A stretch of 64,000 nt of DNA, from the NCBI GenBank assembly GCA_964577055.1, contig CAZNWC010000003.1, positions 28,020 to 92,019 of the forward strand, given 5' to 3'. Each line of letters starts with the position of its first letter. Within the stretch, counting starts at the first letter, position 1. Position numbers and translations under genes: made by a program. Positions 1-64,000 of this stretch are shown piece by piece. The notes under the pieces are model-generated. The model was not told where the DNA came from. It made no database searches and was given only the letters and a program-made list of their open reading frames with translations. This stretch comes from an uncultured Chitinophaga sp. Its GTDB lineage: Bacteria; Bacteroidota; Bacteroidia; UBA7662.

Positions 1-307
1 CAAGGGGGGAGTTGTGTTGATGAAAGCGCAGCCTCACGCCTTGGTTTAGAAAGCCCAACTCCTTGTTATCTAAGCGCATTTGGGAGAGTGATTTTCCATT
101 GTTACGGGAGTGTTTCGCATTAGCGAAGTTGACTCATCGCTGAATCTTAGGGGGATGCTATAGCGGTCTGCCAATTTGGCTGAATGAAATACAATGGCCT
201 CATTGTTGACTTGTAAGGCCGTATCCAAATGCAAAGAGCGCGACCAAAAGCTGCTGCTCTTTTGTTAACTTTGGCAGGTTTAAGCATTCATTCCGTATTT
301 ACACCGC

Positions 308-9119: not shown

Positions 9120-9166
9120 AAACATAAAAGCTTTGCAGTCAGCGCTTTTGAACCTACTTTTGCGCC

Positions 9167-9514
9167 ATGAATGAAACAAAGCGACAGCTCCGCGTCGCGA
9201 AATTGATTCAGCAAGAAATTGCTGAAATCCTGCAACGTGAGTTGCCTGGACTTACTGCTGGAGGATTAACCACCATTACCAAGGTACGTGTGACCCCAGA
9301 TTTATCTTTGGCGCGCTACTATGTAAGCGTACTGGGTCAGCAAAAGCAACTTACTGTTGACAAACTGAATGAGGCCAGGGCAGACGTACGCCTACGTTTA
9401 GGACAGCGCTTGCGTCATCAACTGCGCATTGTGCCGCAATTGGAATGTTATTTAGACGATTCCTTAGATTACATCGATAACATTGACCGTTTGTTGAACG
9501 GGGGACAAGCCTGA
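9167..9514 (+). CDS. rbfA: Ribosome-binding factor A
   Basis: 115 aa with the RbfA KH-like motifs RVAKLIQQEIAEIL and TITKVRVTPDLSLARYYVS. Confidence 0.85.
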   Translation: MNETKRQLRVAKLIQQEIAEILQRELPGLTAGGLTTITKVRVTPDLSLARYYVSVLGQQKQLTVDKLNEARADVRLRLGQRLRHQLRIVPQLECYLDDSLDYIDNIDRLLNGGQA

Positions 9515-22931: not shown

Positions 22932-25900
22932 ATGCAGAGAAAGTTCTACCTGAGTTTATTCCTGCTGTTGCTGAGCACGTTAGCTGTCTTTGGTCAGGCT
23001 GGTACCGGTACCCTACAAGGTAAGGTAGTAGACGAACTGAAGCCAAAAGAGGGTATCCCCTTCGCAAACGTGGTCATCGAGCGGGATGGTGTGGTCAAAG
23101 GCGGTACTACCACCGACATCGATGGTAAGTATAAGTTTGGCGCCTTGCCCCCCGGAAAGTACGACCTGAAGGTTTCGTACGTAGGTTACAATCCAGCCGT
23201 GCTCAAAGGCGTGCTGGTGAGTGCCGACCGAAGCAATTTCGTTGACATCAAAATGAGCTCGGGTGTTGACCTGAGCGTAATTGATGTTGTGGATTATGAG
23301 GTTCCCCTCATTTCCAAAGACGAAACTTCTACCGGTGGTACTGTAACCCGTGAAGAAATCGCGGCCCTACCCACGCGCGACGTGAACTCCATTGCGGCTA
23401 CCACCGGTGGTGTTTTCCAGCAAGATGAAGGCGGCGCCCTAAACATTCGCGGTTCACGTTCCGATGCAACTGAATACTTCATCGACGGTATTCGTGTTCG
23501 CGGTTCAACCAACTTGCCGAATGCTGCCATCGAGCAAACAACCGTAATCACAGGTGGTATTCCCGCCCAGTACGGCGATGCTACTGGTGGTATCATCAAC
23601 ATCACCACACGCGGACCATCAGGTCAGTTCTTCGGCGGTGCTGAAGTATTGTCGTCGGCATTTGTGTTGGAGCCTTATGGTTACAACCTCTTTGCCTTGA
23701 ACTTCTCAGGTCCATTGATGAAGCGTGGCGACAAGTCGATTTTGGGTTACTTCATTTCGGGTGAATTTGAAACCCAAAAAGACCCGAATCCTTCGGCTGT
23801 TGGCGTATGGCAATTGAAAGACGATGTATATGACTTTGTAAGCCAAAACCCTTTCCGTCCATCCATTTTCGGTGCTGGTGTAAACCGTAACTCTGAATTT
23901 GTAAATGCCGACGATATGGAGCTGGTACGTGTGCGTCCGAATGCTAATCGTGACCGTTTTTCGATCGCAGGTAAAGTGGACTTCCAACCGAACAACAACT
24001 TTAGCATTACCATTGGTGGTAACTACGATTACGTTGACGGACGTTCTTATGCCCGCTCGCTTTCTTTGTTCAGCCGCGACAATATGGGCTTCTTCAACAA
24101 CAACACCATCCGTGCTTACGGCCGTATCAAGCAGAACTTTGCGTCTGCCGAAGGCGAAAACAACAGTGGTGGCACCATCAAGAACGCCTATTATACCTTG
24201 CAGTTCGACTACACCAAATCGACCAGCTCACAAGATGGTGGTCCTGATCTCGCCCGCAACGCCTTTAACTATGGCCACGTAGGTACTTTCGATTACGATC
24301 TGGTGCCGATTTACAGTGAAGAAGATTACTTCGATGCACAATCAAACGTGCTGTACCGCATGAATGTATTGCAAGGTTTCTCTGAGCAGAACCTGCGCTT
24401 TACGCCCAGCGCGATTGATCCAAGTTTGTCGGTATGGGGAACCAGTTTCTTCAAAGTACTCAACACCACTGAATTCAACAGCATTTCTGATGTTCGTCAA
24501 AACGGTGGTTTGGCCAACGGTTTGCGTCCTGGTTCTGCTTATGGTATTTGGTTCGATCCAGGTCGTCAGTTTGGTGGCTTTAACTTCACCGACAACGACC
24601 AGTATCGCTTGACCGGATTCTTCTCTGCCGACATTGGTGGCCATGCCCTGAAGTTTGGTTTTGAATACGATCAGCGTGTTGACCGTGGATACACCATGAA
24701 CCCATTTGCTGGTGGCATTGGTTTGTGGGGCTTGGCCCGTGGTTTGGCCAATCGCCACTTGTCCGAATTGGATGTGAACAATCCGATTGTGACCCGCGAT
24801 GCCAACGGTTTCTTGACCGATTTGGACACTGTTCGCTTCAACCGTTTGTACAACGCTGGCAACCAGTCGTCTTTCGACCGCAATCTTCGTCGTTCATTGG
24901 GATATGCTGACAATGACCTGCGCTTTATCAACATCGACGCCATGAATCCTGCCGACTTGCAGTTGAGCTTCTTCTCGGCCGAAGAATTGTTGAACGAGGG
25001 TAACTCTTATGTAAGCTACTTTGGATATGACCACTTGGGCAACAAACTGGGCAGCAACCCAGGTGCGCTCGACTTCTTCACTGACCGTGAGAACCGTCCG
25101 GTTCCTGCATTCCAGCCCATTTACATGGCCGGCTTCATTGAAGATAAGTTCTCTTTCGACGACTTGGTTTTCCGTGTAGGTGTGCGTGTTGACCGTTTTG
25201 ATGCCAACCAACCGGTATTGAGAGACCGCTTCCTTTTGTATTCGGCCCGTACGGTTGCAGAAGTTGATGGTGCTTTGAATACTGCAAATGGTGGTATCCA
25301 CCCCAGTGTAGTACCAACCGATGCGGTGGTTTACGTAAACGACATCACCCAGCCTAACCCCGTGATTTTGGGTTACCGTTCAGGTGTTCAGTGGTTTACT
25401 GCCAATGGAACTGAAATTCGTAACGCTTCTGGTATCGCAGCTGCTTCGGCAACTGGTGCTGTAACGCCATTCCTGGTAGATCCTACCCAGAACGAAGTAC
25501 GTGCCGATGCCTTCACCGACTATACCCCGCAAATCAACATCATGCCACGTGTGGCCTTCTCATTCCCTATTTCGGATGAGGCCCAGTTCTTTGCGCACTA
25601 TGACGTATTGACACAGCGTCCGAGCGGCTTCCTCCGCTTCGATCCTCGTCAGTTCTACTTCCTGCAGCAAGTGGGTGGTACCTTGAACAATCCTGATTTG
25701 AAGCCTGAGCGTACCATCGACTATCAGTTGGGCTTTAAGCAGCGTTTGAACAAGACCTCGGCTTTGACCATCAGTGCCTTCTACCGTGAATTGCGCAACA
25801 TGATTCAGATCATCAACGTGCCATTTGCGTATCCGCTCGATTACCGTACCTATGGTAACATCGACTTCGGTACTGTAAAAGGTTTGACCTTGGCTTACGA

Positions 25901-26606
25901 CCTCCGTCGTACAGGTAATGTGCGTATCAACGCCAGCTATACTTTGCAGTTTGCTGATGGTACTGGTTCTGCTCCTCAGCAGGCAGCCCAAATCATCCAG
26001 GCTGGTATCGACAACTTGCGTACCCCAATTCCATTGGACTTCGACGCACGTCACCGCTTGGTAGGTACTTTGGACTTCCGCTTTGGTGAAGGCAAAAACT
26101 ACAATGGTCCTCGCATCAATGGTTTTGGCTTCATGGAAGGCATTGGATTCAACCTCGTAGCCAACGCGATTTCTGGAACACCGTTCTCACGTCAAACTGT
26201 ACCAACACCCGATGGTGCTGTGGTAGGGGGTTTGCAAGGCCGTACTACCTTGAAAGGTGGTATCAACGGTTCACGTTTGCCTTGGCAGTTCCGAATGAAC
26301 TTGCGTGTTGACAAGGACGTAACTGTGAAGTTGGGCAAAGACAAAAACGACAAGCCACGTGAAGCAACCGTGAACGTGTATGTACAGATCCTCAACCTCT
26401 TCGACGCCCGTAACGTGATCAATGTGTATCAATTTACAGGTGATCCAAGCGATGATGGTTATCTCACCAGCGACCTGGGTCGTCAGCAGTTGCAAAGTGT
26501 ACTCGATCAGCAGGCTTTCTTCGATCTGTACACTGCTTCGATGATGAACCCTGGCAACTTTAGTTTGCCCAGAAGAACACGTTTGGGTATCAGATTCAAT
26601 TTCTAA
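22932..26606 (+). CDS. TonB-dependent-receptor-like outer membrane protein with N-terminal carboxypeptidase-regulatory-like domain
   Basis: 1224 aa with a signal peptide. The CarbopepD_reg-like segment is GKVVDE...ANVVIERDG...KYKFGALPPGKYDLKVSYVGY. A plug-like region (LNIRGSRS) follows, then a long beta-barrel ending ...LGIRFNF with a terminal aromatic. Confidence 0.75.
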   Translation: MQRKFYLSLFLLLLSTLAVFGQAGTGTLQGKVVDELKPKEGIPFANVVIERDGVVKGGTTTDIDGKYKFGALPPGKYDLKVSYVGYNPAVLKGVLVSADRSNFVDIKMSSGVDLSVIDVVDYEVPLISKDETSTGGTVTREEIAALPTRDVNSIAATTGGVFQQDEGGALNIRGSRSDATEYFIDGIRVRGSTNLPNAAIEQTTVITGGIPAQYGDATGGIINITTRGPSGQFFGGAEVLSSAFVLEPYGYNLFALNFSGPLMKRGDKSILGYFISGEFETQKDPNPSAVGVWQLKDDVYDFVSQNPFRPSIFGAGVNRNSEFVNADDMELVRVRPNANRDRFSIAGKVDFQPNNNFSITIGGNYDYVDGRSYARSLSLFSRDNMGFFNNNTIRAYGRIKQNFASAEGENNSGGTIKNAYYTLQFDYTKSTSSQDGGPDLARNAFNYGHVGTFDYDLVPIYSEEDYFDAQSNVLYRMNVLQGFSEQNLRFTPSAIDPSLSVWGTSFFKVLNTTEFNSISDVRQNGGLANGLRPGSAYGIWFDPGRQFGGFNFTDNDQYRLTGFFSADIGGHALKFGFEYDQRVDRGYTMNPFAGGIGLWGLARGLANRHLSELDVNNPIVTRDANGFLTDLDTVRFNRLYNAGNQSSFDRNLRRSLGYADNDLRFINIDAMNPADLQLSFFSAEELLNEGNSYVSYFGYDHLGNKLGSNPGALDFFTDRENRPVPAFQPIYMAGFIEDKFSFDDLVFRVGVRVDRFDANQPVLRDRFLLYSARTVAEVDGALNTANGGIHPSVVPTDAVVYVNDITQPNPVILGYRSGVQWFTANGTEIRNASGIAAASATGAVTPFLVDPTQNEVRADAFTDYTPQINIMPRVAFSFPISDEAQFFAHYDVLTQRPSGFLRFDPRQFYFLQQVGGTLNNPDLKPERTIDYQLGFKQRLNKTSALTISAFYRELRNMIQIINVPFAYPLDYRTYGNIDFGTVKGLTLAYDLRRTGNVRINASYTLQFADGTGSAPQQAAQIIQAGIDNLRTPIPLDFDARHRLVGTLDFRFGEGKNYNGPRINGFGFMEGIGFNLVANAISGTPFSRQTVPTPDGAVVGGLQGRTTLKGGINGSRLPWQFRMNLRVDKDVTVKLGKDKNDKPREATVNVYVQILNLFDARNVINVYQFTGDPSDDGYLTSDLGRQQLQSVLDQQAFFDLYTASMMNPGNFSLPRRTRLGIRFNF

Positions 26607-26615
26607 GAGACAAAA

Positions 26616-29600
26616 ATGAAAGGGATGATAATGAATCGTAAAATTTGGACCTTGGTGATGGCTATCACCATGGGAGGAATTTTGGGAGCAGAGGCGCGCG
26701 AAGACCTGTCGGTGCAGCCCCGCACCCAGCAGAACAATCGCCAGTTCGTAGCCCGTGTGGCGTCGAACTGCACGCCTCCCAGCGCCAGGATTAACCTCGA
26801 CATCAACAATGTGCGTGCCATGATTTTGCGTGGTAACGACATGTGGTGGGACCAAGGAGGTAGCGGCAATGCGCGCTATGAAATACCTAAGCTGGATGAC
26901 CCAACTTTGCCCAAAAAACACGCTTTGTTTGCGGGTTCTATTTGGGTGGGTGGTATTGATGCCGTAGGTACCTTAAAGGTTGCCGCTCAAACTTACCGTC
27001 AAACAAGCACTTTGGGTGTAGGATGGTGGGCTGGTCCGCTCACGCTTGACTCAGCAACCATTACACGTGACGAGTGTCGTCGTTGGGATACCCACTGGAA
27101 GGTGGAGCGCCGTCAAATTCAGGAGCACATTGCAGCGATTGCAGCGGGTGATGCTTCTTATGTAATTCCAGACGGTATTCGCAATTGGCCTTGGCAGGGT
27201 GATGTTACCCTTGGTCAAGATCCGAACATGGCACCATTTGTAGACGTGGATGCTGATGGCGTTTACAACCCTGGCAATGGTGATTATCCGGATATTTTTG
27301 GTGACCAGTCTATCTGGTTCCAAACCAACGACAAGGGCAATACGCCTGGTTCAGGTGCCACACCCATTGGTATGGAAATCCAGACCCAAGCCTTTGCTTA
27401 CCAGTCGAACGACGAGTTGAACAATATGACGTTCTATACGAACAAGATTATCAACCGCTCGACCATTCGTTTGGACTCGTGCTTTATGGCACAGTGGGTT
27501 GACCCCGATCTTGGTAACTATACCGACGACTTCGTTGGTTGTGATGTTCCCCGTGGTTTGGGTATTGCCTACAATGGTGACGACGACGATGAAGGTATTC
27601 AAGGTTATGGCGTAAACCCTCCTTCGGTAGGTGTTGACTTCTTTGAAGGTCCTTTCTCTGATCCGAACGATGGTATTGACAACGACCGTGATGGTCAGGT
27701 GGACGAAATTGCAGCTTCTGGTTGCGATCCTACCCCACGTACTGAACGTATCATCATGGCGAAGTTCCTTTATTTCAATAACGATGGTTCGCCCATAGGT
27801 AACCCAACTACTGCCGAGCATGCTTACAACTACATGATTGGTCGTTGGAAAGACAATACGCAAATGGTATTTGGTGGTAATGGCTATCCCAACTCTGCTG
27901 GTGCCACTACTTTGCCTGCAACCATCATGTTCCCCGGTGCATCCGACAACCAGTTTGGTTGGGGCTTGGGTGGTTCTACTTCGAACCCCATTGCACCACC
28001 TTTCGATTGGAGTGAATTCAATCCTGGTCCTGGTGCTCAGCCTAACGTGCCTGCCGACCGTCGATTCGTGCAATCTGCTGGTCCTTTCACCTTGTTACCC
28101 GGTGCTGTAAACTACATCACCATTGGTGTAGTATGGGCGCGTGCTTCATCAGGTGGTGCTCGTGGTTCACTGAACCTCTTGCTGCGTGCCGACTCAAAAG
28201 CACAAGCTTTGTTCGACAACTGCTTTAAGACCATCGATGGTCCTGATGCGCCAGATGTGAGCATCACGGAATTGGATCAAGAGTTGATTTTGTCGTTCAG
28301 CTACAAGCCAACCAGCAACAACTACCGTTTGGGCTATCGAGAAGAAGATCCGGTGATCAAGTCGTTGAATGATGACTTGCCTCCAGGAACCAATTTGTTT
28401 GATCCTTACTACCGTTTTGAAGGATTCAAAGTGTACCAGTTGTCTGCTTCGAATGTATCTACAGGTGAATTGGACGATCCCAACCGTGCACGTTTGCTCT
28501 ATCAGGGCGACATCAAAAACAATGTTGACCGCATTATCAACTGGGATTTTGATTTGGATCTTGAGCAATCGGTACCTTCATTGGCTGTTGACGGTGCTAA
28601 CGATGGTGTACAAATGAGTTTGCGTATCACCCGTGACCTCTTCGCAGAAGGAAGTGACCGTTTGACCAACTTCAAGCGTTACTATTACCTGGTATTGGCT
28701 TATGGTTACAACAACTATGCAACTTTTGACCCTGCTTCTGATACAGGTCAGCAGCGTCCTTACCTTGCTGGTCGTAACAATGTGCAGGTGTATACTGGTA
28801 TTCCGCACAAGTGGGAGCCTACCTTCAACGGCTTGATTTTGAATTCTTCTTATGGTGATGGTCCCGTGATCACACAATTAGAAGGCCGTGGTAATGGTGG
28901 CAACTTCCTTGAGCTTTCGGAAGCAACTGTGGCTGAGATTTTGGCCAATGGTCAGAGCAATCGTCCTACCTATGTAGGGGGTGCTGGTCCGGTTGACATC
29001 AAAGTAATTGATCCTACGCTTGTGCCTCGTGCCAAAATGACTTTGGCTATGTACCGTGGCAATCCTGGTGCTGGTAATTTGTCGGTGAACAACGATGGAC
29101 GTTGGTACATTGTATACAACAGCGATACCATTTTCTCTGATACGACTGTTGCAGTAGGTTCTGAGCAAATTTTGGGTTACTACGAAAACAATGTGATTTT
29201 CAGAAGCCTCGGTTTGAGTGCAACCATTCAAAATGCCCGTTCTCCGGGCGAGGAGCCTGAAACCGGCAATGGTATTATTGGCAGCACCTCCTTCTATGAA
29301 GATCGTTCGAACGAATGGTTGACCTTTATTCCGGATGATGAGCGTTTGGAAGTATTCGACTGGGTGAAGGCAGGTCCTCCCGGTGGTGATCCTTTGATTG
29401 CCAGTGGTGACCCACAGCGTTTCTTCGAGAACATTGTGCCCGGTGAATTACCAAATACCAATATCCAAGGGGGAACGTGGACAGCGATGCGATATGCTGC
29501 GCCTACACCTTTCCATCCTGGTGTGTTTAACTCTCAGGGTGACAACCAACCACTGAACATTCCTTTCCGTGAAGCTTCGCGCCTGGATAGCTTGCGTAGT

Positions 29601-30599
29601 GTAGATGTGGTATTTACCGCTGACAAGAGCAAGTGGACCAAAGTGGTGGTATTAGAGATGTGTGAAACACCTGCGCAAGCACAGGGTGGTCGCCGTCGTA
29701 ACCATTTGCGTGCTGCTCCTTCTGTTGATAAAAACGGCAATGTTGATCCGAACGAACCCCGTGAAGGTTTTGGCTGGTTCCCTGGTTATGCCATCAATGT
29801 GGAAACTGGTCAGCGCTTGAACATGGCCTTTGGTGAAGACAGTCGAGCCTCTATTTCAAATGGTGGTGACATGATTTGGAATCCGAGCGATAGCATTTTT
29901 GGTGATCAGTTGGCTGGTCAGCCACAAATCATCATGGGTGGTAAGCACTTTGTATATGTGATGGCATCACCTTATGATGAAGGTGAGCGTCCTTACCGCA
30001 TTCTCACCCGTACACTGGGTGGTGGTACGCCTAACCCAACTAATTTGCCGGTGAACGTTATCCGCGATTTCTATCGTGAAATCATGTGGACCACGGTGCC
30101 TTTGCGTCGTACAGGTCGTCAATTGCTGGCGAACGACTACAATGTGAAGATCCGCGTGAACAATCCTTATCGCAACTTTGCTTTGCCAGGTGTTACTGTA
30201 ACCAATACGGGTAATCCATTGTATGAAATTGATGCTACAGGTTTGGCGCCAACCAAGAATGATTTGGCGACTGCTCAAAGTGCACTCGATTTGATTCGTG
30301 TGGTTCCGAATCCTTACTACGCCGCATCGCGCTATGAAACCAGCCAGATCGACAACCGTGTGAAGATCACAAACTTGCCACAGCGTTGCGAAATCAGGAT
30401 TTACACCACTGGTGGTACCCTGATCCGTACGTTGCGCAAGGATGATCCTACCACATTTGTAGATTGGGATTTGTTGAACCAGGAGCGTATTCCTATTGCC
30501 AGTGGAGCTTATATCATCCATGTGAACGCACCCGGTATTGGTGAAAAAGTAGTGAAGTGGTTCGGTGTAACCCGTCCGATTGACCTCGATACCTTCTAA
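26616..30599 (+). CDS. Large secreted protein with T9SS C-terminal-domain-like tail; candidate PorU-type protein (uncertain)
   Basis: 1327 aa with a signal peptide and Asp-rich Ca-binding-like blocks (DVDADGVYNPGNGDYPD, DNDRDGQVDE). The C-terminal ~90 aa (VVPNPYY...CEIRIYTTGGTLIRTL...ASGAYIIHVNAPGIGEKVVKWFGV) resemble a T9SS CTD beta-sandwich but extend past the usual end. A FadL/PorV-like gene lies immediately downstream. I could not confirm a C25 peptidase motif by eye. Confidence 0.5.
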   Translation: MKGMIMNRKIWTLVMAITMGGILGAEAREDLSVQPRTQQNNRQFVARVASNCTPPSARINLDINNVRAMILRGNDMWWDQGGSGNARYEIPKLDDPTLPKKHALFAGSIWVGGIDAVGTLKVAAQTYRQTSTLGVGWWAGPLTLDSATITRDECRRWDTHWKVERRQIQEHIAAIAAGDASYVIPDGIRNWPWQGDVTLGQDPNMAPFVDVDADGVYNPGNGDYPDIFGDQSIWFQTNDKGNTPGSGATPIGMEIQTQAFAYQSNDELNNMTFYTNKIINRSTIRLDSCFMAQWVDPDLGNYTDDFVGCDVPRGLGIAYNGDDDDEGIQGYGVNPPSVGVDFFEGPFSDPNDGIDNDRDGQVDEIAASGCDPTPRTERIIMAKFLYFNNDGSPIGNPTTAEHAYNYMIGRWKDNTQMVFGGNGYPNSAGATTLPATIMFPGASDNQFGWGLGGSTSNPIAPPFDWSEFNPGPGAQPNVPADRRFVQSAGPFTLLPGAVNYITIGVVWARASSGGARGSLNLLLRADSKAQALFDNCFKTIDGPDAPDVSITELDQELILSFSYKPTSNNYRLGYREEDPVIKSLNDDLPPGTNLFDPYYRFEGFKVYQLSASNVSTGELDDPNRARLLYQGDIKNNVDRIINWDFDLDLEQSVPSLAVDGANDGVQMSLRITRDLFAEGSDRLTNFKRYYYLVLAYGYNNYATFDPASDTGQQRPYLAGRNNVQVYTGIPHKWEPTFNGLILNSSYGDGPVITQLEGRGNGGNFLELSEATVAEILANGQSNRPTYVGGAGPVDIKVIDPTLVPRAKMTLAMYRGNPGAGNLSVNNDGRWYIVYNSDTIFSDTTVAVGSEQILGYYENNVIFRSLGLSATIQNARSPGEEPETGNGIIGSTSFYEDRSNEWLTFIPDDERLEVFDWVKAGPPGGDPLIASGDPQRFFENIVPGELPNTNIQGGTWTAMRYAAPTPFHPGVFNSQGDNQPLNIPFREASRLDSLRSVDVVFTADKSKWTKVVVLEMCETPAQAQGGRRRNHLRAAPSVDKNGNVDPNEPREGFGWFPGYAINVETGQRLNMAFGEDSRASISNGGDMIWNPSDSIFGDQLAGQPQIIMGGKHFVYVMASPYDEGERPYRILTRTLGGGTPNPTNLPVNVIRDFYREIMWTTVPLRRTGRQLLANDYNVKIRVNNPYRNFALPGVTVTNTGNPLYEIDATGLAPTKNDLATAQSALDLIRVVPNPYYAASRYETSQIDNRVKITNLPQRCEIRIYTTGGTLIRTLRKDDPTTFVDWDLLNQERIPIASGAYIIHVNAPGIGEKVVKWFGVTRPIDLDTF

Positions 30600-30618
30600 T
30601 TTTTTAACGAGAAAGAGC

Positions 30619-31671
30619 ATGAAATTAGATATGATAAAGAAAAGCAGCCTGATGATTGTAGCACTGGCAACCGTTGTTGCCAGTGCCTACGCAGGCAATC
30701 CTGATCGTCGTGGTCAGGCCGGTGCACAGGAGTTATTGGTAGTTCCATGGGCCCGCAGTGCCGGCTGGATCGGTGTAAATACTTCTACCGTTCGCGGTAT
30801 TGAAGCCGAGCGCATGAATGTAGCCGGATTGGCTTTCACCAAACGTACGGAGTTGAATTTCTCTCGTACTACCTGGTTGAGTGGCACCGACATTTACATG
30901 AATGCTTTTGGTTTAGCGACCAAAATCAATGAGTCGAGCTCGCTTGGTTTTTCGGTAATGTCGATTGACATGGGTTCGGTGGAAATCACTACCACAGAAA
31001 ATCCCGATGGTGGATTGGGTACTTATAAGCCCTCCTTTGCAAACATCGGTATTTCGTATGCCAAGTCGTTTTCTGACCGCATTCACGGTGGTGCTACTGT
31101 ACGTATCATCAGCCAGAGTATTTCTGACGTAAGTGCACAAGGTGTAGCTTTCGACGCAGGTATTCAGTATGTAACGGGTCCGAAAGATGCCATCAAATTT
31201 GGTATTGCCTTGCGCAACGTAGGTACACCTATGCAATTTGGTGGCGACGGTTTGTCGGCTCGTGGTACCATGCAGGGCAGCACAGTTGCCCTCACCCTCA
31301 ACCAGCGTTCGGCACAATTTGAATTGCCTTCGTTGATGAACATTGGTGCTTCATATGACTTGTACCCAATGGGTGTTGACGATTACAAATTGACCCTTGC
31401 TGGTAACTTCACTTCGAATTCATTTACCAACGACCAGTATGGTTTAGGCGCAGAATTTAGCTGGAAGAATATGTTCGCCGCTCGTGCAGGTTATCAGTTT
31501 GAAGATGGTTTTAGCACTGAAGCCAGCCGTCAGAATGTATATACCGGTTTAAACTTCGGTTTTTCGGTAGATGCACCTGTTGGCAAGAGCATCTTTGGTT
31601 TTGACTATGCTTATCGTGGAACAAATCCTTTTGGAGGAACCCATTTGATTGGTATTCGCTACAACCTTTGA
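30619..31671 (+). CDS. FadL-fold outer membrane beta-barrel, PorV/PorQ-like T9SS shuttle-family protein
   Basis: About 350 aa with signal peptide MKLDMIKKSSLMIVALATVVASAYA. The FadL/PorV-type N-terminal motif is AGAQELLVVPWARSAGWIGV...ERMNVAGLAF. The barrel ends ...GIRYNL. It is encoded 19 nt after the CTD-bearing gene. Confidence 0.5.
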   Translation: MKLDMIKKSSLMIVALATVVASAYAGNPDRRGQAGAQELLVVPWARSAGWIGVNTSTVRGIEAERMNVAGLAFTKRTELNFSRTTWLSGTDIYMNAFGLATKINESSSLGFSVMSIDMGSVEITTTENPDGGLGTYKPSFANIGISYAKSFSDRIHGGATVRIISQSISDVSAQGVAFDAGIQYVTGPKDAIKFGIALRNVGTPMQFGGDGLSARGTMQGSTVALTLNQRSAQFELPSLMNIGASYDLYPMGVDDYKLTLAGNFTSNSFTNDQYGLGAEFSWKNMFAARAGYQFEDGFSTEASRQNVYTGLNFGFSVDAPVGKSIFGFDYAYRGTNPFGGTHLIGIRYNL

Positions 31672-35656: not shown

Positions 35657-37135
35657 TCATCCTTCCGCCTCATGCTTTGTGGCAAGCCCCATGTGCCCTG
35701 CCCCTTCCGGTGCGTGGTAGATGTCAATGGCCGTGATGACGGCGAGGAATGACCAATACAAAAGGGCGGTTTTGTCGATGTCGAGGTAATCGTTCAAAAA
35801 GCCATGGGTTAGATAGGTGACCAATCCCAAGAGCACTATCAAAATGCTTTGTTTGAGGAATTGATCACGCAGGGTGTAGTACAAACGCATGGCTTTGGAA
35901 ATGGCAAAACCGATGATGGTTAAAAAAATGACAAAGCCAGGAATGCCCATCTCCACCAGCGGGTTCATGTATTCGCTGTGTATGCCACCAACATCGGCGG
36001 CATTGGTGCTGATAATGGTTTTTTCGTTGGGTTTTTGAAATGGGGCGTATTGGAACATATAGGTGCCCGGACCCCAGCCTAAAAAGGGTCGTTCTTCTAA
36101 CATGCGAAAGCCACTGGCCCAACGGTTCAGTCGTTCGAGATTGGAGGCATCGGTACGCACGTTTGAAATAGATTTCACGTGCTTGCTCAGGTCATCGGCC
36201 GAATCGGTTTTGTTTTCCATCAACCGCATGGTGATTTGCGTTTGGAAGGTGAAAAACAAGGCCACCACTACACCCAAGGCACCCAAGAGTCCCCAGAACG
36301 GAATTTTCAATCGTAGCACCAGGTAAAAGGCACCGGCAGCAATCACCCCCAACCAGGCTGCACGCGTATAGCTGAAGATGAGTCCAGCGGTAAAAATGAC
36401 CAGCAACAGCAGCATCACAAAGCTCATGAGCGGCCGCTGGGTGAAAAGTGGTAGCCTGAATAGGTATACCACAATCATGGGGATAAAAAAGGCGACCATC
36501 GCTCCATATATGCCGTGGTTCATCACGAATGGTTCACTGGCCCAATACGAGGCTTGTTTGGTAAAGCCGTAGGTGCTGTGGTTGTAAATACTCCAGATAA
36601 TTACCGCCGTGAGGGGCACCATGTAGAGCCACAAAAAAAGGTGTATGTTTTGTCTTTTGCGAAACAGCTGCAAGCCAATGAAATAGAAGCAGGTGATGAA
36701 CCACAGGTTCGACAAAAAGAACTTGAACGAAGTAAGGGGCATGCTGCTTGAAATGCTGGTAAATACCATCCACAGCAAATAGAAGACAATCGACAAGCTA
36801 ATTGGGTGGTACAAGGCCCGTGTGTCGTAACGCCCCTCGATGAGCAGCTTGAGGTAAAATAGCACCATCATGCCAAAGAGCAGGGGTTCGGTGGGCAAGG
36901 TAAAACTGATGCCCAATTGGCCTACATCGACCAATACGCTCAAGGGTGTGATGAAGGTGATGAACAGCAGCGAACGGTCGATGCTGAAGGTGACGAAATA
37001 CACGAACCACAGCGCCATGGGTACAAAAAGGAACCAATATTGCTCGCGCGTGAGCATAAAGCTGCTGAAGGATACAAACAGCACCCCTATGGCGTAAAAC
37101 CAACTTTTGCTCAGCGATGATGTGGCCAGCCGCAT
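35657..37135 (-). CDS. O-antigen ligase (Wzy)-family polytopic membrane protein
   Basis: 492 aa with ~12 TM segments. The Wzy_C-like motif is YTRAAWLGVIAAGAFYL, and a large periplasmic loop is present. Confidence 0.55.
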   Translation of the reverse strand: MRLATSSLSKSWFYAIGVLFVSFSSFMLTREQYWFLFVPMALWFVYFVTFSIDRSLLFITFITPLSVLVDVGQLGISFTLPTEPLLFGMMVLFYLKLLIEGRYDTRALYHPISLSIVFYLLWMVFTSISSSMPLTSFKFFLSNLWFITCFYFIGLQLFRKRQNIHLFLWLYMVPLTAVIIWSIYNHSTYGFTKQASYWASEPFVMNHGIYGAMVAFFIPMIVVYLFRLPLFTQRPLMSFVMLLLLVIFTAGLIFSYTRAAWLGVIAAGAFYLVLRLKIPFWGLLGALGVVVALFFTFQTQITMRLMENKTDSADDLSKHVKSISNVRTDASNLERLNRWASGFRMLEERPFLGWGPGTYMFQYAPFQKPNEKTIISTNAADVGGIHSEYMNPLVEMGIPGFVIFLTIIGFAISKAMRLYYTLRDQFLKQSILIVLLGLVTYLTHGFLNDYLDIDKTALLYWSFLAVITAIDIYHAPEGAGHMGLATKHEAEG

Positions 37136-37138
37136 GCC

Positions 37139-38257
37139 TTACTGTTTGCGTGCAAGGAGGTATTTGTAGTTCTCTACCGCAATGAGGATAAGCAGGGTGA
37201 ACAAAAAGGCGCCAAAAGTGCTCAACAAAACGATGAGTGAACGCAATGGATAGGTTTTCTTTTCGGCAACTTTGGCTGAATTCACCACAAATTTTACGGG
37301 CAGCACTTCGTCAACATCCACTTTGGCGCGGTCGTAACGCTGACGGAGCTTTACCAATTCTTCGTTTTCTTTTTCAAGTTGTTCTTTTACGCTGTTGTAT
37401 GCACCCCCAAAACGGCCCAAAAGGTCGAGTTGTTTTTGCAGTTCACGCGCGGTAGCTTCCGATCCGCTGAGGCGCGATTCGTTGTTCACAATGCCCGTAT
37501 CGGTATCGGCAATGCCTTTGTTCCGCAATACCTGCAGCTTGGCTTTGGCATCCGAAATGCCTGCCACTGCTTGTACGTATACATCGGTAATGTGGTCGAT
37601 TTGCATGTCGTAATCGAAAATGCCCATGTTGCGGAACTGGTTGAGCGAGTCGTTGAGGCGGTTCACCAGATCGCGCTTGGCGAGGTACTGCGTTTCCACA
37701 ATTTGCAAGGCCTTGGTAGCCTGTTCCTGTTGGATTTTATTTTTGGTTTCGTCGAGCAGGGCAGCTATGTCGTTGGCGATGTTAGCGGCAATTTGAGGAT
37801 CGGTGTCGAGCACTTCAATTTCTACCGATGAATATTCGGTACGGCGGAAGCGGATATTGTCGCTGAATTTTTTGGCCAGTTGGGTGTAGCGGAATTTGCT
37901 GTTGGGTTTGATGTCGTAATGGTTCATCAAATCGTATTTGTCGATGATGAACTGCCTGATTTCGTCGGAATACAAGATTTGTATCAGCTGTTCGGCCTGT
38001 TCTTCTTCGCCAAACTCAAGTGGGTCGCTGCGGTCGTAAGCATTTTCGTTGAGAAGGGCTTTGGACACCGAATTGGTGGTGGCGGGATAAAACACCACTG
38101 TTGATTTAAAGCGAGGTTTGATGAAAGTGGGGCCTGAAAAGATGACCGAGGCCACGGCTGCGAGCATGGTTACCACCAGGATAGGGGTTTTCCATTTTAC
38201 CAGAAATTCAACCACCGAAAGGGAATCGAAACTGTACGCCTGTTTCTCAGCTTGCAT
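37139..38257 (-). CDS. Polysaccharide chain-length determinant (Wzz/GumC-like) protein
   Basis: The start was chosen at MQAEKQ because the ORF track extension upstream is a GC-rich artefact. It has an N-terminal TM, a long coiled-coil periplasmic region, and a C-terminal TM. Confidence 0.5.
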   Translation of the reverse strand: MQAEKQAYSFDSLSVVEFLVKWKTPILVVTMLAAVASVIFSGPTFIKPRFKSTVVFYPATTNSVSKALLNENAYDRSDPLEFGEEEQAEQLIQILYSDEIRQFIIDKYDLMNHYDIKPNSKFRYTQLAKKFSDNIRFRRTEYSSVEIEVLDTDPQIAANIANDIAALLDETKNKIQQEQATKALQIVETQYLAKRDLVNRLNDSLNQFRNMGIFDYDMQIDHITDVYVQAVAGISDAKAKLQVLRNKGIADTDTGIVNNESRLSGSEATARELQKQLDLLGRFGGAYNSVKEQLEKENEELVKLRQRYDRAKVDVDEVLPVKFVVNSAKVAEKKTYPLRSLIVLLSTFGAFLFTLLILIAVENYKYLLARKQ

Positions 38258-38292: not shown

Positions 38293-39726
38293 CTACGACA
38301 AACGGCCCTGTAAATAGGCATAAATGCGTTGGTAAAGGGGCAGTCCGAACAGGAGCAAGAGCAAGGTTAGTCCGACCATGCTTTGCAGCGCGCTGCTCCA
38401 AAACGAAGGGGGCATGGGCCAAGCCTTGCTCAAACCCATGCAAACGCCTGTCCAAAGCAGCAATCGGCCCGCAAAGCCGGCGTGGAGCTGCCATTTGTGG
38501 CGTTTCCAGGCCATGATGAGTTGGCAAAGGGCCATGAGCGATTGGGTGCACAGGGCGGCGGTTGCGGCCCCCACCGGACCAGTTTGTGGTATCAGCCAAA
38601 AGTTGAGCAGCAAGTTCAGCAGCAACGCAGCCGCAGCCAGCTGGTTCAATTGCCGCAAATGCCCTCCGGCTGTGAGCAAGGTGCCAAATACGTAGTTCAA
38701 GCTGAGGGGCAAAAAGGTCCACATCAGCAAACGGAAAGCCTGGTTTTGTACAGGGTCGTGGTGGTGGTATAGCCACTCCATCAACCAATCGGCCTGCACC
38801 TGTGCCACCACGGCCACTACACTGCCCAATCCGCCCAACAGCAGGGCAGCAGTGCGTACAAAGGCGGCATCGAGTTTTTGGCTGGCCAACATGGATGCAA
38901 ATTGGGGCAGGAGGATGCCGCTTACGAGGATGGGCACCATGGCGAAGGCGTCGAGCAGGCGATATCCCGCAGCATAGACGCCTGCCGCATAATCACCTTG
39001 GGGCAGTAGATTTTGCAGCAATACCGCATCTATTTTGGTGTATCCGGCCATCAGGAGTCCTAACAAGGCGAAAGGCAAGGACTGACGCAGCAATTTTCGG
39101 CTCAACGACCAGGAGAAGTACAGGCGCGGACGAACCTTGCGGCTTACCAGCAACAACAAGGGAAGGGAGGTGCCCACATAGGCGAGGGTTTGGATGAGCA
39201 CAAAATCAGTCATCAGGGCGCCGCTGAGGTAGGGTTGATTGAGCAGCAGCGGCCAGGCCAGGAGACTCATGAGCAATTTGTCGAGCACCCCAAAAAAGCC
39301 TTCGGTTTTGAATTGTTGGGTGCCTGCCAGGTACGAGCGCAAAAACAGGTTCAAAAAGTGCAGACCTTGGTTGAGGCAAATGAGCAGCAACAACGGGCCG
39401 GGCGATAAACCGCTGATCCAAGCGGCTCCGAGGGTGAGCAAGAGGTAAGCGACAAAAAGTTGGCTTTTGAGTCCGAGCAGGCCTTCGAGTGTGTGCCCCT
39501 CGGAGGCGGTTTGCATGGCAACCCGCCGGGTATTGTAATTCGAAAGTCCGGCATCGAGCAGGGTGCTGAGCAGGAGCGAGAAGTTGAGCAGGGCGTAGTA
39601 TTGTCCGTAGGCTTCGGGACCAGCTTGGTTTTGCACCTGCCGGTCGATGGCGAAGATCCAGAAGGGTTTGATGGTGAGGTTGAGTAGGAGGACCACACCG
39701 GCATTGTAGAGAAAACGCAGCCGCAT
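38293..39726 (-). CDS. Polysaccharide flippase (Wzx / MOP-superfamily oligosaccharide transporter)
   Basis: The true start is at MRLRFLYNAG. The 150-aa N-terminal extension in the ORF track is the translation of the DNA tandem repeat. About 12-14 TM segments with a Wzx-like topology. Confidence 0.6.
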   Translation of the reverse strand: MRLRFLYNAGVVLLLNLTIKPFWIFAIDRQVQNQAGPEAYGQYYALLNFSLLLSTLLDAGLSNYNTRRVAMQTASEGHTLEGLLGLKSQLFVAYLLLTLGAAWISGLSPGPLLLLICLNQGLHFLNLFLRSYLAGTQQFKTEGFFGVLDKLLMSLLAWPLLLNQPYLSGALMTDFVLIQTLAYVGTSLPLLLLVSRKVRPRLYFSWSLSRKLLRQSLPFALLGLLMAGYTKIDAVLLQNLLPQGDYAAGVYAAGYRLLDAFAMVPILVSGILLPQFASMLASQKLDAAFVRTAALLLGGLGSVVAVVAQVQADWLMEWLYHHHDPVQNQAFRLLMWTFLPLSLNYVFGTLLTAGGHLRQLNQLAAAALLLNLLLNFWLIPQTGPVGAATAALCTQSLMALCQLIMAWKRHKWQLHAGFAGRLLLWTGVCMGLSKAWPMPPSFWSSALQSMVGLTLLLLLFGLPLYQRIYAYLQGRLS

Positions 39727-39744
39727 GGGGTAAAGATAAGAGAT

Positions 39745-39950
39745 GTGGGGGAAGCTAGCGCTTCTGTGGGGGAAGCTGCGCTTCTGTGGGTGAAGCTGCG
39801 CTTCTGTGGGGGAAGCTAGCGCTTCTGTGGATGAAGCTGCGCTTCTGTTGATGAAGCTGGCGCTTCTGTGGATGAAGCTGCGCTTCTGTGGGGCATGCTG
39901 CGCATCTGTGGGGGAAGCTAGCGCTTCTGTGGGGGAGGCTGCGCTTCTAA
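39745..39950. repeat. Tandem repeat, ~10 copies of a 20-21-bp unit (consensus GAAGCT[A]GCGCTTCTGTGGGGG) in divergent intergenic region
   Basis: Directly visible. GAAGCT recurs with periods 21,20,20,21,20,21,20,20,21,21. The last copies are degenerate. Confidence 0.9.
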
Positions 39951-40088
39951 AGCTGGCGGGGGTGGCGACTTCGAAAATGTTCGCATCGGTGGGGCTGTAC
40001 CGTGCTTGGAAACGATTTGGCATTGGAAAAATGGACGGACGGCAGTATTTGCGGTGAAGGGAATCAATTATTTGCCAATATTTGCGGC

Positions 40089-41114
40089 ATGTTCGCAGCC
40101 GAGCGCTTTTTGTTCTTTTGTTCGTGGCTCGCCGGTTTGGTGGTGAACCTGGGGCGAAATCCGCTACGCAAGGCACCCCGGCGTATTTTGGTTATCAGGC
40201 GCGACGAACTGGGCGATATGGTGACCACCCTACCTGTTTTTGAGCTTTTCAAAAAATACTATCCCCAGGCCGAACTCACGGTTTTTTGTAAACCCCAAAT
40301 GGCCCAGCTCATCAAAGAACATCCATGCATCGATGTGATTGCCACCGATTGGAAACAGCTGCAGGGACATTACGACTACCTCGCCGATCTGCGGGGCGAT
40401 TGGAAAAGCTTGCGGTTTGCACTGCGGCAGTGGTCGCACCGGGTCGACAGGGGCAGTCACCGCTTCATCAACCGCTTGTTCAAACGTCAACAAGGCCATG
40501 AGGTCGACCTCAACATCCGCATCATCACTCCTTTGTTGCCCGAAACACCAGTTCCAGTGGCACCTCGTTTGTATCCGAATCGTAGACAGCACCAGCAAGC
40601 AGAATTGTTCCTGCAACGCAACGACATAGGATCTTTTGTGATTTTTCACACGGGTGCCCGCAAATTGTTGCGGCGTTGGGCCCTCCAAAAATGGGCTGAA
40701 TTGGCCGTATTTCTCTATCAACGCTACGAAGTACAAGTGGTATTTGTTGGCGGAGACGAAGACCTGGCCGATATTGAAAAAATCCGCAAGCGGCTGCCCT
40801 TTCCAACCTACAGCTTTGTGGGTGAGGGGGATTTGTTGAGCTATGCTGCCCTCGCCCAACGCGCCCGCCTCATGGTAGGCAACGAAAGTGGTCCTATGCA
40901 CATGGCAGCAGCCATGGGTGTGCCAGTGATTGCGCTTTTTGGTCCGGGACAACCCGAAATTTTTGCACCGTATGGCCCCGGTAATCGCTATTTGCATGTA
41001 AAGCTGGCCTGCAATCCCTGCGACCAAATCAATTGCATCTATCCTAAAAATCCCTGCATCAACCGCATAGAGGTGCAGGACGTTTTGCGCGAAGCGGCTA
41101 CCCTCTTGGCGTGA
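40089..41114 (+). CDS. Glycosyltransferase family 9 (LPS heptosyltransferase-like)
   Basis: The GT9 N-terminus is RRILVIRRDELGDMVTTLPVFELFKKYYP. The C-terminal GT-B motif GNESGPMHMAAAMGVPVIALFGP is present. The start was placed at the ATG 29 codons into the ORF and is uncertain. Confidence 0.7.
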   Translation: MFAAERFLFFCSWLAGLVVNLGRNPLRKAPRRILVIRRDELGDMVTTLPVFELFKKYYPQAELTVFCKPQMAQLIKEHPCIDVIATDWKQLQGHYDYLADLRGDWKSLRFALRQWSHRVDRGSHRFINRLFKRQQGHEVDLNIRIITPLLPETPVPVAPRLYPNRRQHQQAELFLQRNDIGSFVIFHTGARKLLRRWALQKWAELAVFLYQRYEVQVVFVGGDEDLADIEKIRKRLPFPTYSFVGEGDLLSYAALAQRARLMVGNESGPMHMAAAMGVPVIALFGPGQPEIFAPYGPGNRYLHVKLACNPCDQINCIYPKNPCINRIEVQDVLREAATLLA

Positions 41115-47745: not shown

Positions 47746-48702
47746 TCATGGCAAGCGGCTTTGCACGGCGCGCGTGAGGCGGTCGTTGATGGCCAGGCCC
47801 AATCCCGTTTCCGGAAATTTTTCTACCAGCACCCAATCGTAGCGCATTTCGTCGAGTAAACGCAGGGTGGCGAACAGCTTGCTGGCTGCTTCGGGCAAAC
47901 TGTTGGCAGGCGAAAGCAACCATTGGTGCTGCGGGTCGACCTGGGGCAAGGGGCTGCTGAAACGCAGGTAGCCTATGCGGCCTGCCGGCAGCTCGGTTAC
48001 TTCGTGTTGCCACAACAAAGGGGTGCGGGGGGCATAGTGCTTCACCAACATGCCGGGCGCCCGGGGATTGCTGCTGCTGGTTTGCACTGACAATGGTTGT
48101 CCCACCGCAGCTTCCAGGGCTTCGAGCGAAAGCCCACCAAGTCGCAACACCTTGGGCTCACCCCCACTGAGGTCGATAATGGTGCTCTCGAGTCCCACAC
48201 TGCAAGGTCCTCCGTCGAGCACATAGGCCACGGCATCGCCCAGCTGTTGGAGCACGTGTTGGGCGGTGGTGGGACTCACATAGCCGAACGGATTGGCGCT
48301 GGGGGCTGCCAGCGGGAAGTCGAGCGCCTCGAGCAACTGCAGGCTCAATGGGTGGTTGGGCACACGGATGCCCACGGTGGAATGTCCGGCACTTACCAAA
48401 TCGGGGATGATGGCTTTTTTGGGCAAGATGAAGGTAAGCGGTCCCGGACAAAAAACTTCCGCCAAGCGGTAAGCCAGGGGTGGTACTTGTCTGCAATAGC
48501 GTTCTACCTGTTCAAAACGCGCCAGGTGCACAATCAGCGGGTCGAAAGCCGGGCGGTTTTTGGCTTCGAAGATGCGGGCAACGGCCAAGGAATCTAGGGC
48601 ATTGGCTGCCAAACCATACACGGTTTCGGTGGGAATGCCCACCAACTGGCCTTTGCGCAAGGCCTCGGCAGCCCTGCTGACATCGGTACCCCATTTTTCC
48701 AT
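47746..48702 (-). CDS. tsaC: L-threonylcarbamoyladenylate synthase (Sua5/YrdC/TsaC family, long Sua5-type)
   Basis: 318 aa. The YrdC fold motif is GQLVGIPTETVYGLAANA. A C-terminal Sua5 domain is present. Confidence 0.85.
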   Translation of the reverse strand: MEKWGTDVSRAAEALRKGQLVGIPTETVYGLAANALDSLAVARIFEAKNRPAFDPLIVHLARFEQVERYCRQVPPLAYRLAEVFCPGPLTFILPKKAIIPDLVSAGHSTVGIRVPNHPLSLQLLEALDFPLAAPSANPFGYVSPTTAQHVLQQLGDAVAYVLDGGPCSVGLESTIIDLSGGEPKVLRLGGLSLEALEAAVGQPLSVQTSSSNPRAPGMLVKHYAPRTPLLWQHEVTELPAGRIGYLRFSSPLPQVDPQHQWLLSPANSLPEAASKLFATLRLLDEMRYDWVLVEKFPETGLGLAINDRLTRAVQSRLP

Positions 48703-48779
48703 GCTGCAAAACTACACAAAGCATCGAAAGCTTGTTGCGATGCATGTTTTGGCCTATATTGTGAGGCTAAATTCCTGTT

Positions 48780-61600: not shown

Positions 61601-61623
61601 GCAGCTTGCCGTAGTTTTGAGGC

Positions 61624-62331
61624 ATGCAGGTGAAACTTTCGGCCATTGTGTTGCGCACCACGCCCTACAGCGATAGTTCGGTGATTGTGCGGCTATTTAC
61701 CGATGCATACGGCATGCAGTCGTACCTGGTGAATGGTGTCCGCAAAAAAAAGGCGGCCATCACCCCTGCCATGTTGCAACCCCTTACTTTGGTGCAAATT
61801 GAAGCTTACCAGCGCGAAGGTGCAGGGTTGCAGCGGCTCAAAGAACTGCATGTTCAGCCTGTTTTGCCGCGTTTGCAACAAGAGCCCTTGTATGCCATGG
61901 CTGCCAGCTTGTTGGCGGAATGTTTGATGCGTGCCGTGCGCGAAGACAGCGAGCAGCCCGAGTTGTTTGTCTGGTTGCAGCAGCAGGTATTGTTGCTCGA
62001 AACCACCGAGTTGCCTGCGGTAGAAATGTTGGCCATCCTCACGCGTTTGACCGAGTGGCTGGGATTTAAGCCGCAGATGGGGGCTGAGCGATGGACCTGG
62101 TTCAATTTGAAAGAAGGCAGGTTTGAGCCGCAGCACGATATGCGATCGGTATATGCCAGCACGGCATCGGCCCGGCAATTGGCGTACTTTTTAGGCGCCG
62201 ATGCTTTTGGCACGCACGATTTGCCCGGCCCGGCCTACCTCGATGATTTGTTGAAATATTACCAATTCCACCTGCCCGGATTTGGCTTGCCCAAGTCGTT
62301 GGAAGTGGTGCGCGAGATGTTGTTTGTGTAG
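61624..62331 (+). CDS. recO: DNA repair protein RecO
   Basis: 235 aa. The N-terminal OB-fold is AIVLRTTPYSDSSVIVRLFT. The C-terminal domain is helical. Confidence 0.85.
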   Translation: MQVKLSAIVLRTTPYSDSSVIVRLFTDAYGMQSYLVNGVRKKKAAITPAMLQPLTLVQIEAYQREGAGLQRLKELHVQPVLPRLQQEPLYAMAASLLAECLMRAVREDSEQPELFVWLQQQVLLLETTELPAVEMLAILTRLTEWLGFKPQMGAERWTWFNLKEGRFEPQHDMRSVYASTASARQLAYFLGADAFGTHDLPGPAYLDDLLKYYQFHLPGFGLPKSLEVVREMLFV

Positions 62332-62437
62332 TTCGCTGCTTGTTTTGGCCTCGCACAATCAACTTCTTCATGCAACGAAGGGCACCAAAATCAGCTCACC
62401 AATTCGGTAATTCAACAAGGGCCATTAACTTTAGCAA

Positions 62438-63709: not shown

Positions 63710-64000
63710 TAACGGAGGCGGTTGGAGCAGGGGCGCAAGGTGCAAGGGGCGGGGTGTTAGATCTATGACCATCTCGGTCATCTCTGTGACCTCCGTGTTT
63801 TGCAAAGTCAGGGAAGGATGCGGAGGGATGATAACGGAGGCGGTTGGAGCAGGGGTGCAAGGTGCATGGGGCAGGGGGTGCGAGGTATTAGGTCTATGAC
63901 CATCTCTGTGACCTCTGTGAACTCCGTGTTTCGCAAAGGCAGGGAAGGAGGCGGAGGGATGATAGCAGAAGCGGTTGGCGTTTGGCGTTCTGCCGGTCCC
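63687..64000. repeat. Tandem repeat, ~2.4 copies of a ~122-131-bp G-rich unit, truncated by window end
   Basis: CAGGGAAGGATGCGGAGGGATGATAACGGAGGCGGTTGGAGCAGGGG... recurs at 63687, 63809 and 63940. Each full unit contains the inverted repeat ATGACC-n5-GGTCAT or a variant of it. Confidence 0.8.

Follow-up and report, generated by a model that had tools for sequence, protein, structure and literature searches.

A locus-specific tandem array upstream of a wzx-like flippase gene in an uncultured Chitinophaga, a probable promoter-proximal minisatellite with copy number differing between lineages

The stretch of DNA analyzed here (hereafter the window: 64,000 nucleotides of contig CAZNWC010000003.1, assigned to an uncultured Chitinophaga sp.) contains a surface polysaccharide locus in which a wzx-like flippase gene on the minus strand and a heptosyltransferase-family gene (GT9) on the plus strand are transcribed divergently from a common spacer, and this spacer harbors ten head-to-tail copies of a 20-21-bp unit, the element under study. 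The identity of both flanking genes had been proposed in an earlier interpretation made from the letters of the sequence without database searches (the sequence-only reading), and is supported by Pfam. The interval assigned there to the repeats, 39727..40088, turned out to coincide exactly with the wzx-GT9 intergenic spacer, of whose 362 bp the array itself covers only 205, while the part facing GT9 (39949..40088) is unique, non-repetitive sequence. Downstream of wzx the operon continues with a gene for a 372-aa protein, kept at this position, between wzx and the Wzy_C gene, in all relatives examined, and with the Wzy_C/O-antigen-ligase-like gene (wzy) itself (Table 1).

Mechanical delineation of open reading frames (ORFs) extends wzx through the array and gives a product of 627 aa (38293..40176, minus strand) instead of the true 477 aa. 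The suspicion that the additional 150 residues are a fake repetitive N-terminus was correct: close flippase homologues are all of 477 aa and all start with MRLRFLYNAG, and the translation of the long ORF has an internal M-R-L-R-F-L-Y-N-A at 39726. A coding nature of the repeats is ruled out by the same homologue lengths and MRLRF starts, and the array is indeed a non-coding element of the divergent promoter region, as had been assumed. The false repetitive N-terminus is nevertheless repeated in a public gene call of 576 aa. Strain-level variants were sought via N-terminal extensions of differing length; protein cluster 1 consisted of the window type and L116 (a close relative described below) only, and the calls of 503 and 541 aa (P0002, P0255, protein cluster 4) reflected different start codons at identical upstream sequence.

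Table 1. Features of the wzx-GT9 locus and further predicted -7 boxes, in coordinates of the window.
Feature	Position	Strand	Basis and remarks
wzx-like flippase gene, 477 aa	38293..39726	-	Pfam Polysacc_synt; ATG at 39726..39724, also the predicted transcription start
GT9 gene, heptosyltransferase-family, 341 aa	40089..41114	+	Pfam Glyco_transf_9; divergent from wzx; ATG at 40089
Gene for 372-aa protein, wzx operon	37139..38257	-	No Pfam match; conserved
Wzy_C/O-antigen-ligase-like gene, wzx operon	35657..37135	-	Pfam
Spurious 150-codon extension of the wzx ORF	39727..40176	-	Non-coding; ORF read through the array
Tandem array, 10 units	39744..39948	-	Tandem Repeats Finder, pattern search, unit parse, unit statistics; about -18 to -222 from the predicted wzx start
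Promoter-proximal unit, GAAGC GCTA GCTTC	39751..39764	-	Unit parse, lineage comparison; -25 to -38
Non-repetitive spacer between array and GT9 core promoter	39949..40076		98.6% identical in L116; unrelated in L118 and L120
Predicted sigma-A -7 box of wzx, TATCTTTA, then CCCC, then ATG	39731..39738	-	Motif geometry
-7-like box of GT9, AATATTTG, then CGGC, then ATG	40077..40084	+	4-nt layout; conserved in outgroup
-7-box sites at other starts and at GT9	48700..48714	-	
	61612..61626	+	
	62426..62440	+	
	9155..9169	+	
	18193	-	
	40077..40091	+	

The array is by far the strongest short-period tandem repeat of the window according to Tandem Repeats Finder (period 20, 10.1 copies, 88% matches, 3% indels, score 290), and unit-by-unit parsing resolves it into ten units, six of 20 bp and four of 21 bp (mean length 20.4 bp; 19-21 bp across lineages), all in direct orientation. 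The initial count of about ten copies of 20-21 bp is thus real, and the 21-mer searched with up to three mismatches gave five matches in the window, all within the array, with 0.00 expected in shuffled sequences. Read in wzx sense, each unit is composed of GAAGC, a centre (GCA, GCTA or GCCA), GCTTC and a linker of 6-7 nt (CCCCACA, ATCCACA, ATCAACA or ACCCACA), the linkers being themselves repeated. The symmetric element common to the units is therefore a 5-bp inverted repeat, GAAGC/GCTTC, separated by a 3- or 4-nt centre; the palindromic core claimed for every unit exists in this sense, but the hexamers AGCGCT and GCTAGC by which it had been defined are restricted to the variant with the 4-nt centre. 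Similarly, the period does correspond numerically to about two helical turns, but the register is not strict owing to the flipping of centres between 3 and 4 nt. The unit at 39894..39913 bears GATGC...GCATG in place of GAAGC...GCTTC, a partly compensatory change that is the sole arm difference between the window and L116. Single strands of the array fold far better than shuffled sequences (z = -7.5 as DNA, inter-unit pairing included). With a unit length in the range of 10-100 bp, head-to-tail arrangement in non-coding DNA, and copy number differing among related genomes within conserved flanks, the array has the properties of a bacterial minisatellite, or variable-number tandem repeat (VNTR).

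In Bacteroidota the sigma-A -7 box, TAnnTTTG, occupies positions -12..-5 and is separated from the start site by 4-5 nt (PMC9723704, PMC6847099). The spacer holds only two -7-like boxes, one per strand, TATCTTTA for wzx and AATATTTG for GT9, and the former stands exactly 4 nt before the wzx ATG, placing +1 on the A of this codon. Since TATCTTTA-CCCC-ATG fits the Bacteroidota layout and this layout recurs at other genes of the window, the wzx transcript is predicted to be leaderless, in which case the array would constitute upstream promoter DNA (-18 to -222) and not a 5′ untranslated region (5′UTR). The pattern TANNTTTR-N4-ATG is found five times in the window against 1.15 expected, none of 100 shuffles reaching five, and in four of the five instances the ATG opens a gene with Pfam support (wzx, Sua5, RecO and the second Wzy_C). 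A -7 box located 4-5 nt before ATG was noticed at several genes (Sua5, RecO, Wzy_C, a RadA-like gene and GT9), and leaderless mRNAs may be unusually common in the source organism; their published share is about 4-5% in Bacteroides and Flavobacterium. Under the leaderless assignment the dyad of the proximal unit (-25..-38, centred near -31.5) overlies the -33 region. A conserved promoter farther upstream is not apparent, because beyond the distal end of the array the window, L118 and L120 have no related sequence in common; scanning for sigma-70 promoters and terminators returned 0 promoters, which for Bacteroidota is expected and uninformative. Tracts of simple-sequence-repeat switches reside in a coding sequence or between promoter elements, whereas here, with the promoter assigned by motif, both the -7 box and the ATG are outside the array. 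As the array begins upstream of about -18, and thus falls neither between -33 and -7 nor into the coding sequence, gain or loss of units cannot operate as a simple spacing or frame switch.

Copy number was followed across contigs encoding the same or a related Wzx, with P0008, P0009, P0011 and more distant relatives left out. Two Logan assemblies (L001; L176/L177), 100% identical to the window over 7-14.6 kb, have 10 units and GT9 upstream, and so does L116, which shares 95.6% DNA identity with the window over 7 kb and a Wzx of 99% aa identity. Nine units are present in L120/L145 (wzx DNA 73%), where a divergent CHU_C gene lies upstream, and about three in L118/L119 (73.6%), where the upstream gene is a co-directional Peptidase_M3. 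A single unit is found in L175 (75%), with GT9 upstream and REPIN-like elements in the spacer, and a single canonical unit in L117 and L178/L179 (76-77%), preceded there by 25-nt units of the type "CCACAG + GC-rich hairpin" with unrelated stems; in L178/L179 GT9 is upstream beyond a 2020-bp spacer, and the contig of L117 ends inside the repeats. The outgroup L172-L174 (Wzx 64-65% aa) possesses no units, GT9 being upstream at the end of a spacer of only 100 bp. The expectation that copy number changes over evolution is thereby borne out (0, 1, 1, ~3, 9, 10 and 10 in related lineages), and the array arose within this clade, with copy number as an evolving character.

In all array-bearing lineages the array ends directly before the conserved ...GCTAGCTTCCCCCAC(A/T)TCYCYTATCTTTACCCC-ATG of wzx (...CCCCCACATCYCYTATCTTTACCCC-ATG), and this position is kept even where Peptidase_M3 or CHU_C stands upstream in place of GT9. 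Because the array abuts the wzx start whatever the upstream gene, it belongs to wzx and not to GT9, and the idea of a switch shared by the genes on both sides finds no confirmation: the array is tied to wzx only, and GT9 is replaced in some lineages. Conservation is highest in the proximal unit, which with the 24 nt that follow is almost identical in species where wzx DNA itself retains only 73-77% identity, and the consensus unit persists over the same distance. Synteny is lost precisely where the array ends distally, with Peptidase_M3 on the same strand in L118/L119 (5831..6000) and the CHU_C-domain gene in L120 (5722..6000), and the spacer upstream of wzx may be a hotspot of rearrangement. 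Other peculiarities of this site were observed in the sister lineages. The 25-nt-period units beside wzx (L178 3842..3956; L117 ~60..180) have stems differing from unit to unit (GCCGC/GCGGC, GTCTCGC/GCGAGAC, GCCCCGC/GCGGGGC), and most of them fold better than shuffles. The 2020-bp GT9-wzx spacer (L178 1981..4000, the same in L179) encloses a gene for an IS200-like Y1 transposase of the RAYT type (repetitive extragenic palindrome (REP)-associated tyrosine transposase; L178 2528..2986, minus strand, PF01797, E=4.9e-28), around which composite REPIN-like elements of ~190 bp are placed, with TACACAGATT ends and hairpins GTCCCnnnGGGAC and GCGCCCCGGAGGGGAGCG. Two REPIN-like elements and no transposase are present in L175 (3424..4000).

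Comparison of the window with L116 gives an estimate of the tempo of change. In wzx, the GT9 gene and the distal spacer identity amounts to 98.3-98.6% and indels are absent; in the array it falls to 88.5%, with 8 gap columns and 16 mismatches, a pace of change ~8-fold that of the flanks. Substitutions are unevenly distributed within units: arms differ at 3 of 100 positions, as compared with 21 of 109 for centre and linker (Fisher p=1.7e-4). Among the 31 canonical units from four lineages, all five arm pairs are kept in 26, and 11 units have a centre of 3 nt as against 20 with one of 4 nt, the length flipping at the same unit position in different strains. Each lineage has its predominant centre (GCA in the window, GTTA in L116, GTCA in L120), a pattern typical of concerted evolution. 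On a shorter timescale the array is constant: in each of four pairs of genomes that are nearly identical but stem from independent samples (window and SRR14454014/18; L120 and L145; L118 and L119, 99.2%; L178 and L179, 99.7%) the two arrays are the same, as judged from consensus assemblies, in which minority variants would be missed. Within ~1% divergence copy number thus remains unchanged, and L116 also has 10 units at 95.6% identity. In these consensus assemblies the rapid phase variation suggested by the sequence-only reading left no sign. What is observed is an ordinary slow-changing promoter-proximal VNTR, its copy number varying between lineages and stable among near-identical genomes.

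In the sequences searched, the arrays are confined to this locus. Outside the array GAAGC-N3-4-GCTTC has no occurrence in the window (~0.13 expected by chance), and in ~120 kb of relatives it occurs only at the wzx site; scanning of 185,579 species-representative genomes returned 113 single matches to the unit in unrelated taxa and no array. The unit junction searched in a metagenome collection of 241 million records revealed arrays in L144 and L145 only, both being the wzx locus of the L120 species. The candidate interpretations as a dispersed regulator motif or a genomic repeat were dropped on the basis of these scans. Rfam, at the gathering threshold and at E<=1, yielded only noise (E>0.3), and blastn in distant mode detected no similarity to plasmids or phages. 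Two further candidates were rejected: an invertible promoter, as no inverted repeats flank the array region, and, judged by eye, a G-quadruplex or i-motif formed by G5/C5 linkers, most CCCC linkers being replaced in L116 by ATCA or ATCC, so that the C-tracts are not conserved.

Taken as a whole, these data make us moderately confident that the array is a locus-specific hairpin-forming minisatellite situated in the upstream part of the wzx operon's promoter region, exerting graded modulation of transcription in cis. It would have originated by tandem amplification of a ~20-bp segment that covers -18 to -38 of the predicted leaderless wzx promoter and consists of the 5-bp inverted repeat GAAGC/GCTTC and the C-rich linker. 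Copies could then be gained, lost and homogenized by slipped-strand mispairing, unequal recombination or gene conversion, a turnover that pairing of the quasi-palindromic units within or between copies would favor and that would proceed on the timescale of strain and species divergence. The promoter-proximal copy and the -7 box would be under purifying selection as the core promoter, and the extra copies probably serve, if at all, as additional upstream cis-elements for graded tuning of the genes wzx, wzy and that for the 372-aa protein at the level of transcription. According to the favored reading, the array is not an on/off switch based on frame or spacing, nor an RNA leader, coding sequence or dispersed repeat.

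Several points weigh against it. Every copy number was read from a metagenome assembly, and such assemblies may collapse repeats or put them in the wrong order, although three assemblies of the window's strain agree exactly on the array; healthy sister lineages live with copy numbers of 0-1, and extra copies may accordingly be dispensable. The arms could also be invariant because arrays re-expanded again and again from the conserved proximal copy, with no selection acting on interior copies. The -7 box of wzx ends in A where the consensus has G, and if a promoter were present upstream of the array, the latter would become a 5′ leader.

A serious rival, possible in our estimation though not probable, is that only the proximal unit is functional and the other nine are neutral duplicates resembling each other through recent expansion and concerted evolution. 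Copy number ranging from 0 to 10 without a conserved value across lineages, the lineage-own loops GCA, GTTA and GTCA typical of concerted evolution, and the unrelated REPIN/RAYT insertions or other hairpins accommodated in the spacers of sister lineages, implying that the site tolerates junk, all agree with neutrality, while the significantly lower divergence of arms relative to loops and linkers between the window and L116, the retention of exactly 10 units in both despite 11.5% divergence of the array, and the occurrence of 9-10-unit arrays in two species-level lineages speak against it. Phased regulator sites, with frequent slipped-strand change of copy number producing phase or level variation of lipopolysaccharide (LPS) genes on both sides, as initially proposed, now seem unlikely. 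This proposal accounts for the inverted repeat in every unit, the period of about two helical turns, the conserved arms with variable centres and linkers, the position of the proximal unit near -31.5 over the -33 region, and the variation of copy number among lineages. It conflicts, however, with the adherence of the array to wzx only and with the identical arrays in four near-identical pairs and the same count in L116; moreover, slippage should be far rarer for 20-bp units than for 1-8-bp tracts. The distance between half-sites varies freely, one and the same unit position having 3 nt in one strain and 4 nt in another, so that the fixed spacing of an operator is not found and binding by a rigid dimeric regulator is weakened as an explanation. 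In addition, the distance from the -7 box to the single unit of L175 is shorter by 10 nt, no further site of the motif turned up in the 64 kb of the window and ~120 kb of relatives, and no regulator gene is seen among the neighbors.

Transcription of the array as part of a long wzx 5′UTR, whose ten small hairpins and C-rich linkers might form a Rho-loading or attenuator region or an RNA-protein platform, looks distinctly unlikely. Folding of wzx-sense RNA (z = -6.9), the one partly compensatory unit GATGC...GCATG, the possibility of read-through in L118, where the co-directional gene ends 170 bp upstream, and, as the best hint in this direction, the L178/L117 units combining unrelated stems with the same grammar of hairpin and CCACA linker are all in line with a leader. 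Yet no -7-like box for the wzx strand exists in the spacer besides the one placed 4 nt from ATG, distal sequences are unrelated in the window, L118 and L120, Rfam gave nothing but noise at E>0.3, and the stems are only of 5 bp. Another candidate relationship is with REP elements and bacterial interspersed mosaic elements (BIMEs), in which case the units would be short extragenic palindromes tied to the REP-RAYT system and amplified or processed by a Y1 (HUH) transposase. The units do resemble REP/BIME and REPIN-RAYT components as short GC-rich hairpin-forming intergenic sequences; the spacer of L178/L179 holds the Y1 transposase gene along with REPIN-like elements, L175 holds such elements as well, and by eye array units and REPIN ends are alike in the layout "CACAG + GC-rich hairpin". 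This origin is still very improbable: the 64-kb window has neither a RAYT gene nor a REPIN motif, the unit is not dispersed, which is the defining property of REP, BIME and REPIN elements, copies are in direct orientation only with arms of 5 bp, and the CACAG resemblance is short and could be due to chance.

Plasmid iterons and centromere-like arrays are made of ~20-bp direct repeats bound by Rep or by ribbon-helix-helix proteins of the ParR type, and the array resembles them in geometry only (direct repeats of ~20 bp, about two helical turns, an internal dyad, location upstream of an operon). A replication or partition element of this kind, or a DnaA-box cluster, is scarcely credible, as are a CRISPR-like array, a coding repeat or an assembly artefact. 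Two linkers have the sequence TCATCCACA and match the DnaA box at 8 of 9 positions, but DnaA-box-like sites are not enriched (11 against 12.35 expected), GC skew stays positive across the window without a switch, no rep or par gene is nearby, plasmid and phage records show no similarity, and the array sits in a chromosomal LPS context and is absent from sister lineages. Units are contiguous and leave no unique spacers as in CRISPR, homologues start at MRLRF, at variance with coding repeats, and an artefact is contradicted by the identical array in three assemblies and by related arrays in other projects.

Within the favored reading of a promoter-proximal minisatellite, one may speculate about a "volume control" for LPS/O-antigen export, where copies of the -33-region dyad recruit or titrate a putative factor, the arms are selected and copy number is reset between lineages by slippage and gene conversion; we regard this elaboration as doubtful. 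A protein indifferent to whether the centre has 3 or 4 nt might fill this role, as might one recognizing extruded hairpins. In a more exotic variant, the "CACAG + hairpin" units may be substrates of the HUH/RAYT enzyme encoded in the spacer of a sister lineage, which would make the head of the wzx operon a recombination hotspot and account for the changes of gene order seen where the array ends distally.

Several described repeat systems are worth comparing with the array. The closest functional analogy is offered by the promoter-associated repeats of contingency loci, such as those upstream of hmw1A/hmw2A in Haemophilus influenzae (PMC8262952, PMC2424069, PMC12721329). The features in common are head-to-tail repeats preceding a surface-structure gene, with a copy number that could change by slippage and grade expression. 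The hmw units measure 7 bp, are transcribed, being placed between the promoter and the start codon, and change in number in the course of a single infection. The present array departs from them in having units of 20-21 bp that are located upstream of the predicted transcription start and are identical among near-identical genomes. The closest described relative in the same phylum is BrickBuilt of Porphyromonas gingivalis, a 23-nt minisatellite inside a transposable element of the miniature inverted-repeat type (MITE), with 19 loci per genome, leader and tail sequences and terminal inverted repeats (PMC4596501). BrickBuilt is always intergenic, contains from 1 to ~23 copies and has possible promoter effects, and the array shares with it a spacer-less ~20-nt tandem repeat with conserved and variable positions in intergenic DNA (PMC4596501). 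Unlike BrickBuilt, the array occupies a single locus without leader, tail or terminal repeats, its unit being part of wzx's own predicted promoter, and it cannot be assigned to the MITE-embedded type since it lacks flanking inverted repeats and its distal flanks are unrelated between lineages. Mycobacterial interspersed repetitive units (MIRUs) measure 40-100 bp, occupy multiple loci and are often found between genes of one operon. Intergenic VNTRs such as MIRU-type loci (PMC12817950) are similar to the array in that copy number differs between lineages while flanks are conserved; the array differs from MIRUs in being single-locus, with 20-21-bp units, and upstream of a promoter.

A few features of the window lie apart from the array. 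The window carries type IX secretion genes, and the SecA of the source organism shares 68-70% identity with its counterparts in Solitalea, Pedobacter and further Sphingobacteriales. An ORF of 1327 aa without Pfam match (26616..30599, plus strand) is flanked by genes resembling those of a TonB-dependent receptor (22932..26606) and of PorV (30580..31671). Directly after the second Wzy_C-like gene (62438..63709) a G-rich repeat block (63637..63989) reaches the end of the window, and is built of a 122-bp unit in 2.3 copies (Tandem Repeats Finder score 355) and GGGGCAT and GCAGGGG micro-repeats.

As it stands, the array is an ordinary promoter-proximal VNTR of an already known sort, with a function that is at most putative. 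Its practical consequences are that it misleads gene callers, having produced the public 576-aa "flippase" with a false repetitive N-terminus, and that it might help in the typing of strains. In the source organism, the leaderless TAnnTTTG-N4-ATG layout may be common. If the proposed origin is true, the array exemplifies a minisatellite grown out of a promoter element, in a phylum where knowledge of promoters is still poor, and if copy number does tune the wzx-wzy operon, it would provide this uncultured Sphingobacteriales-like lineage with a simple heritable adjustment of its surface polysaccharide output.

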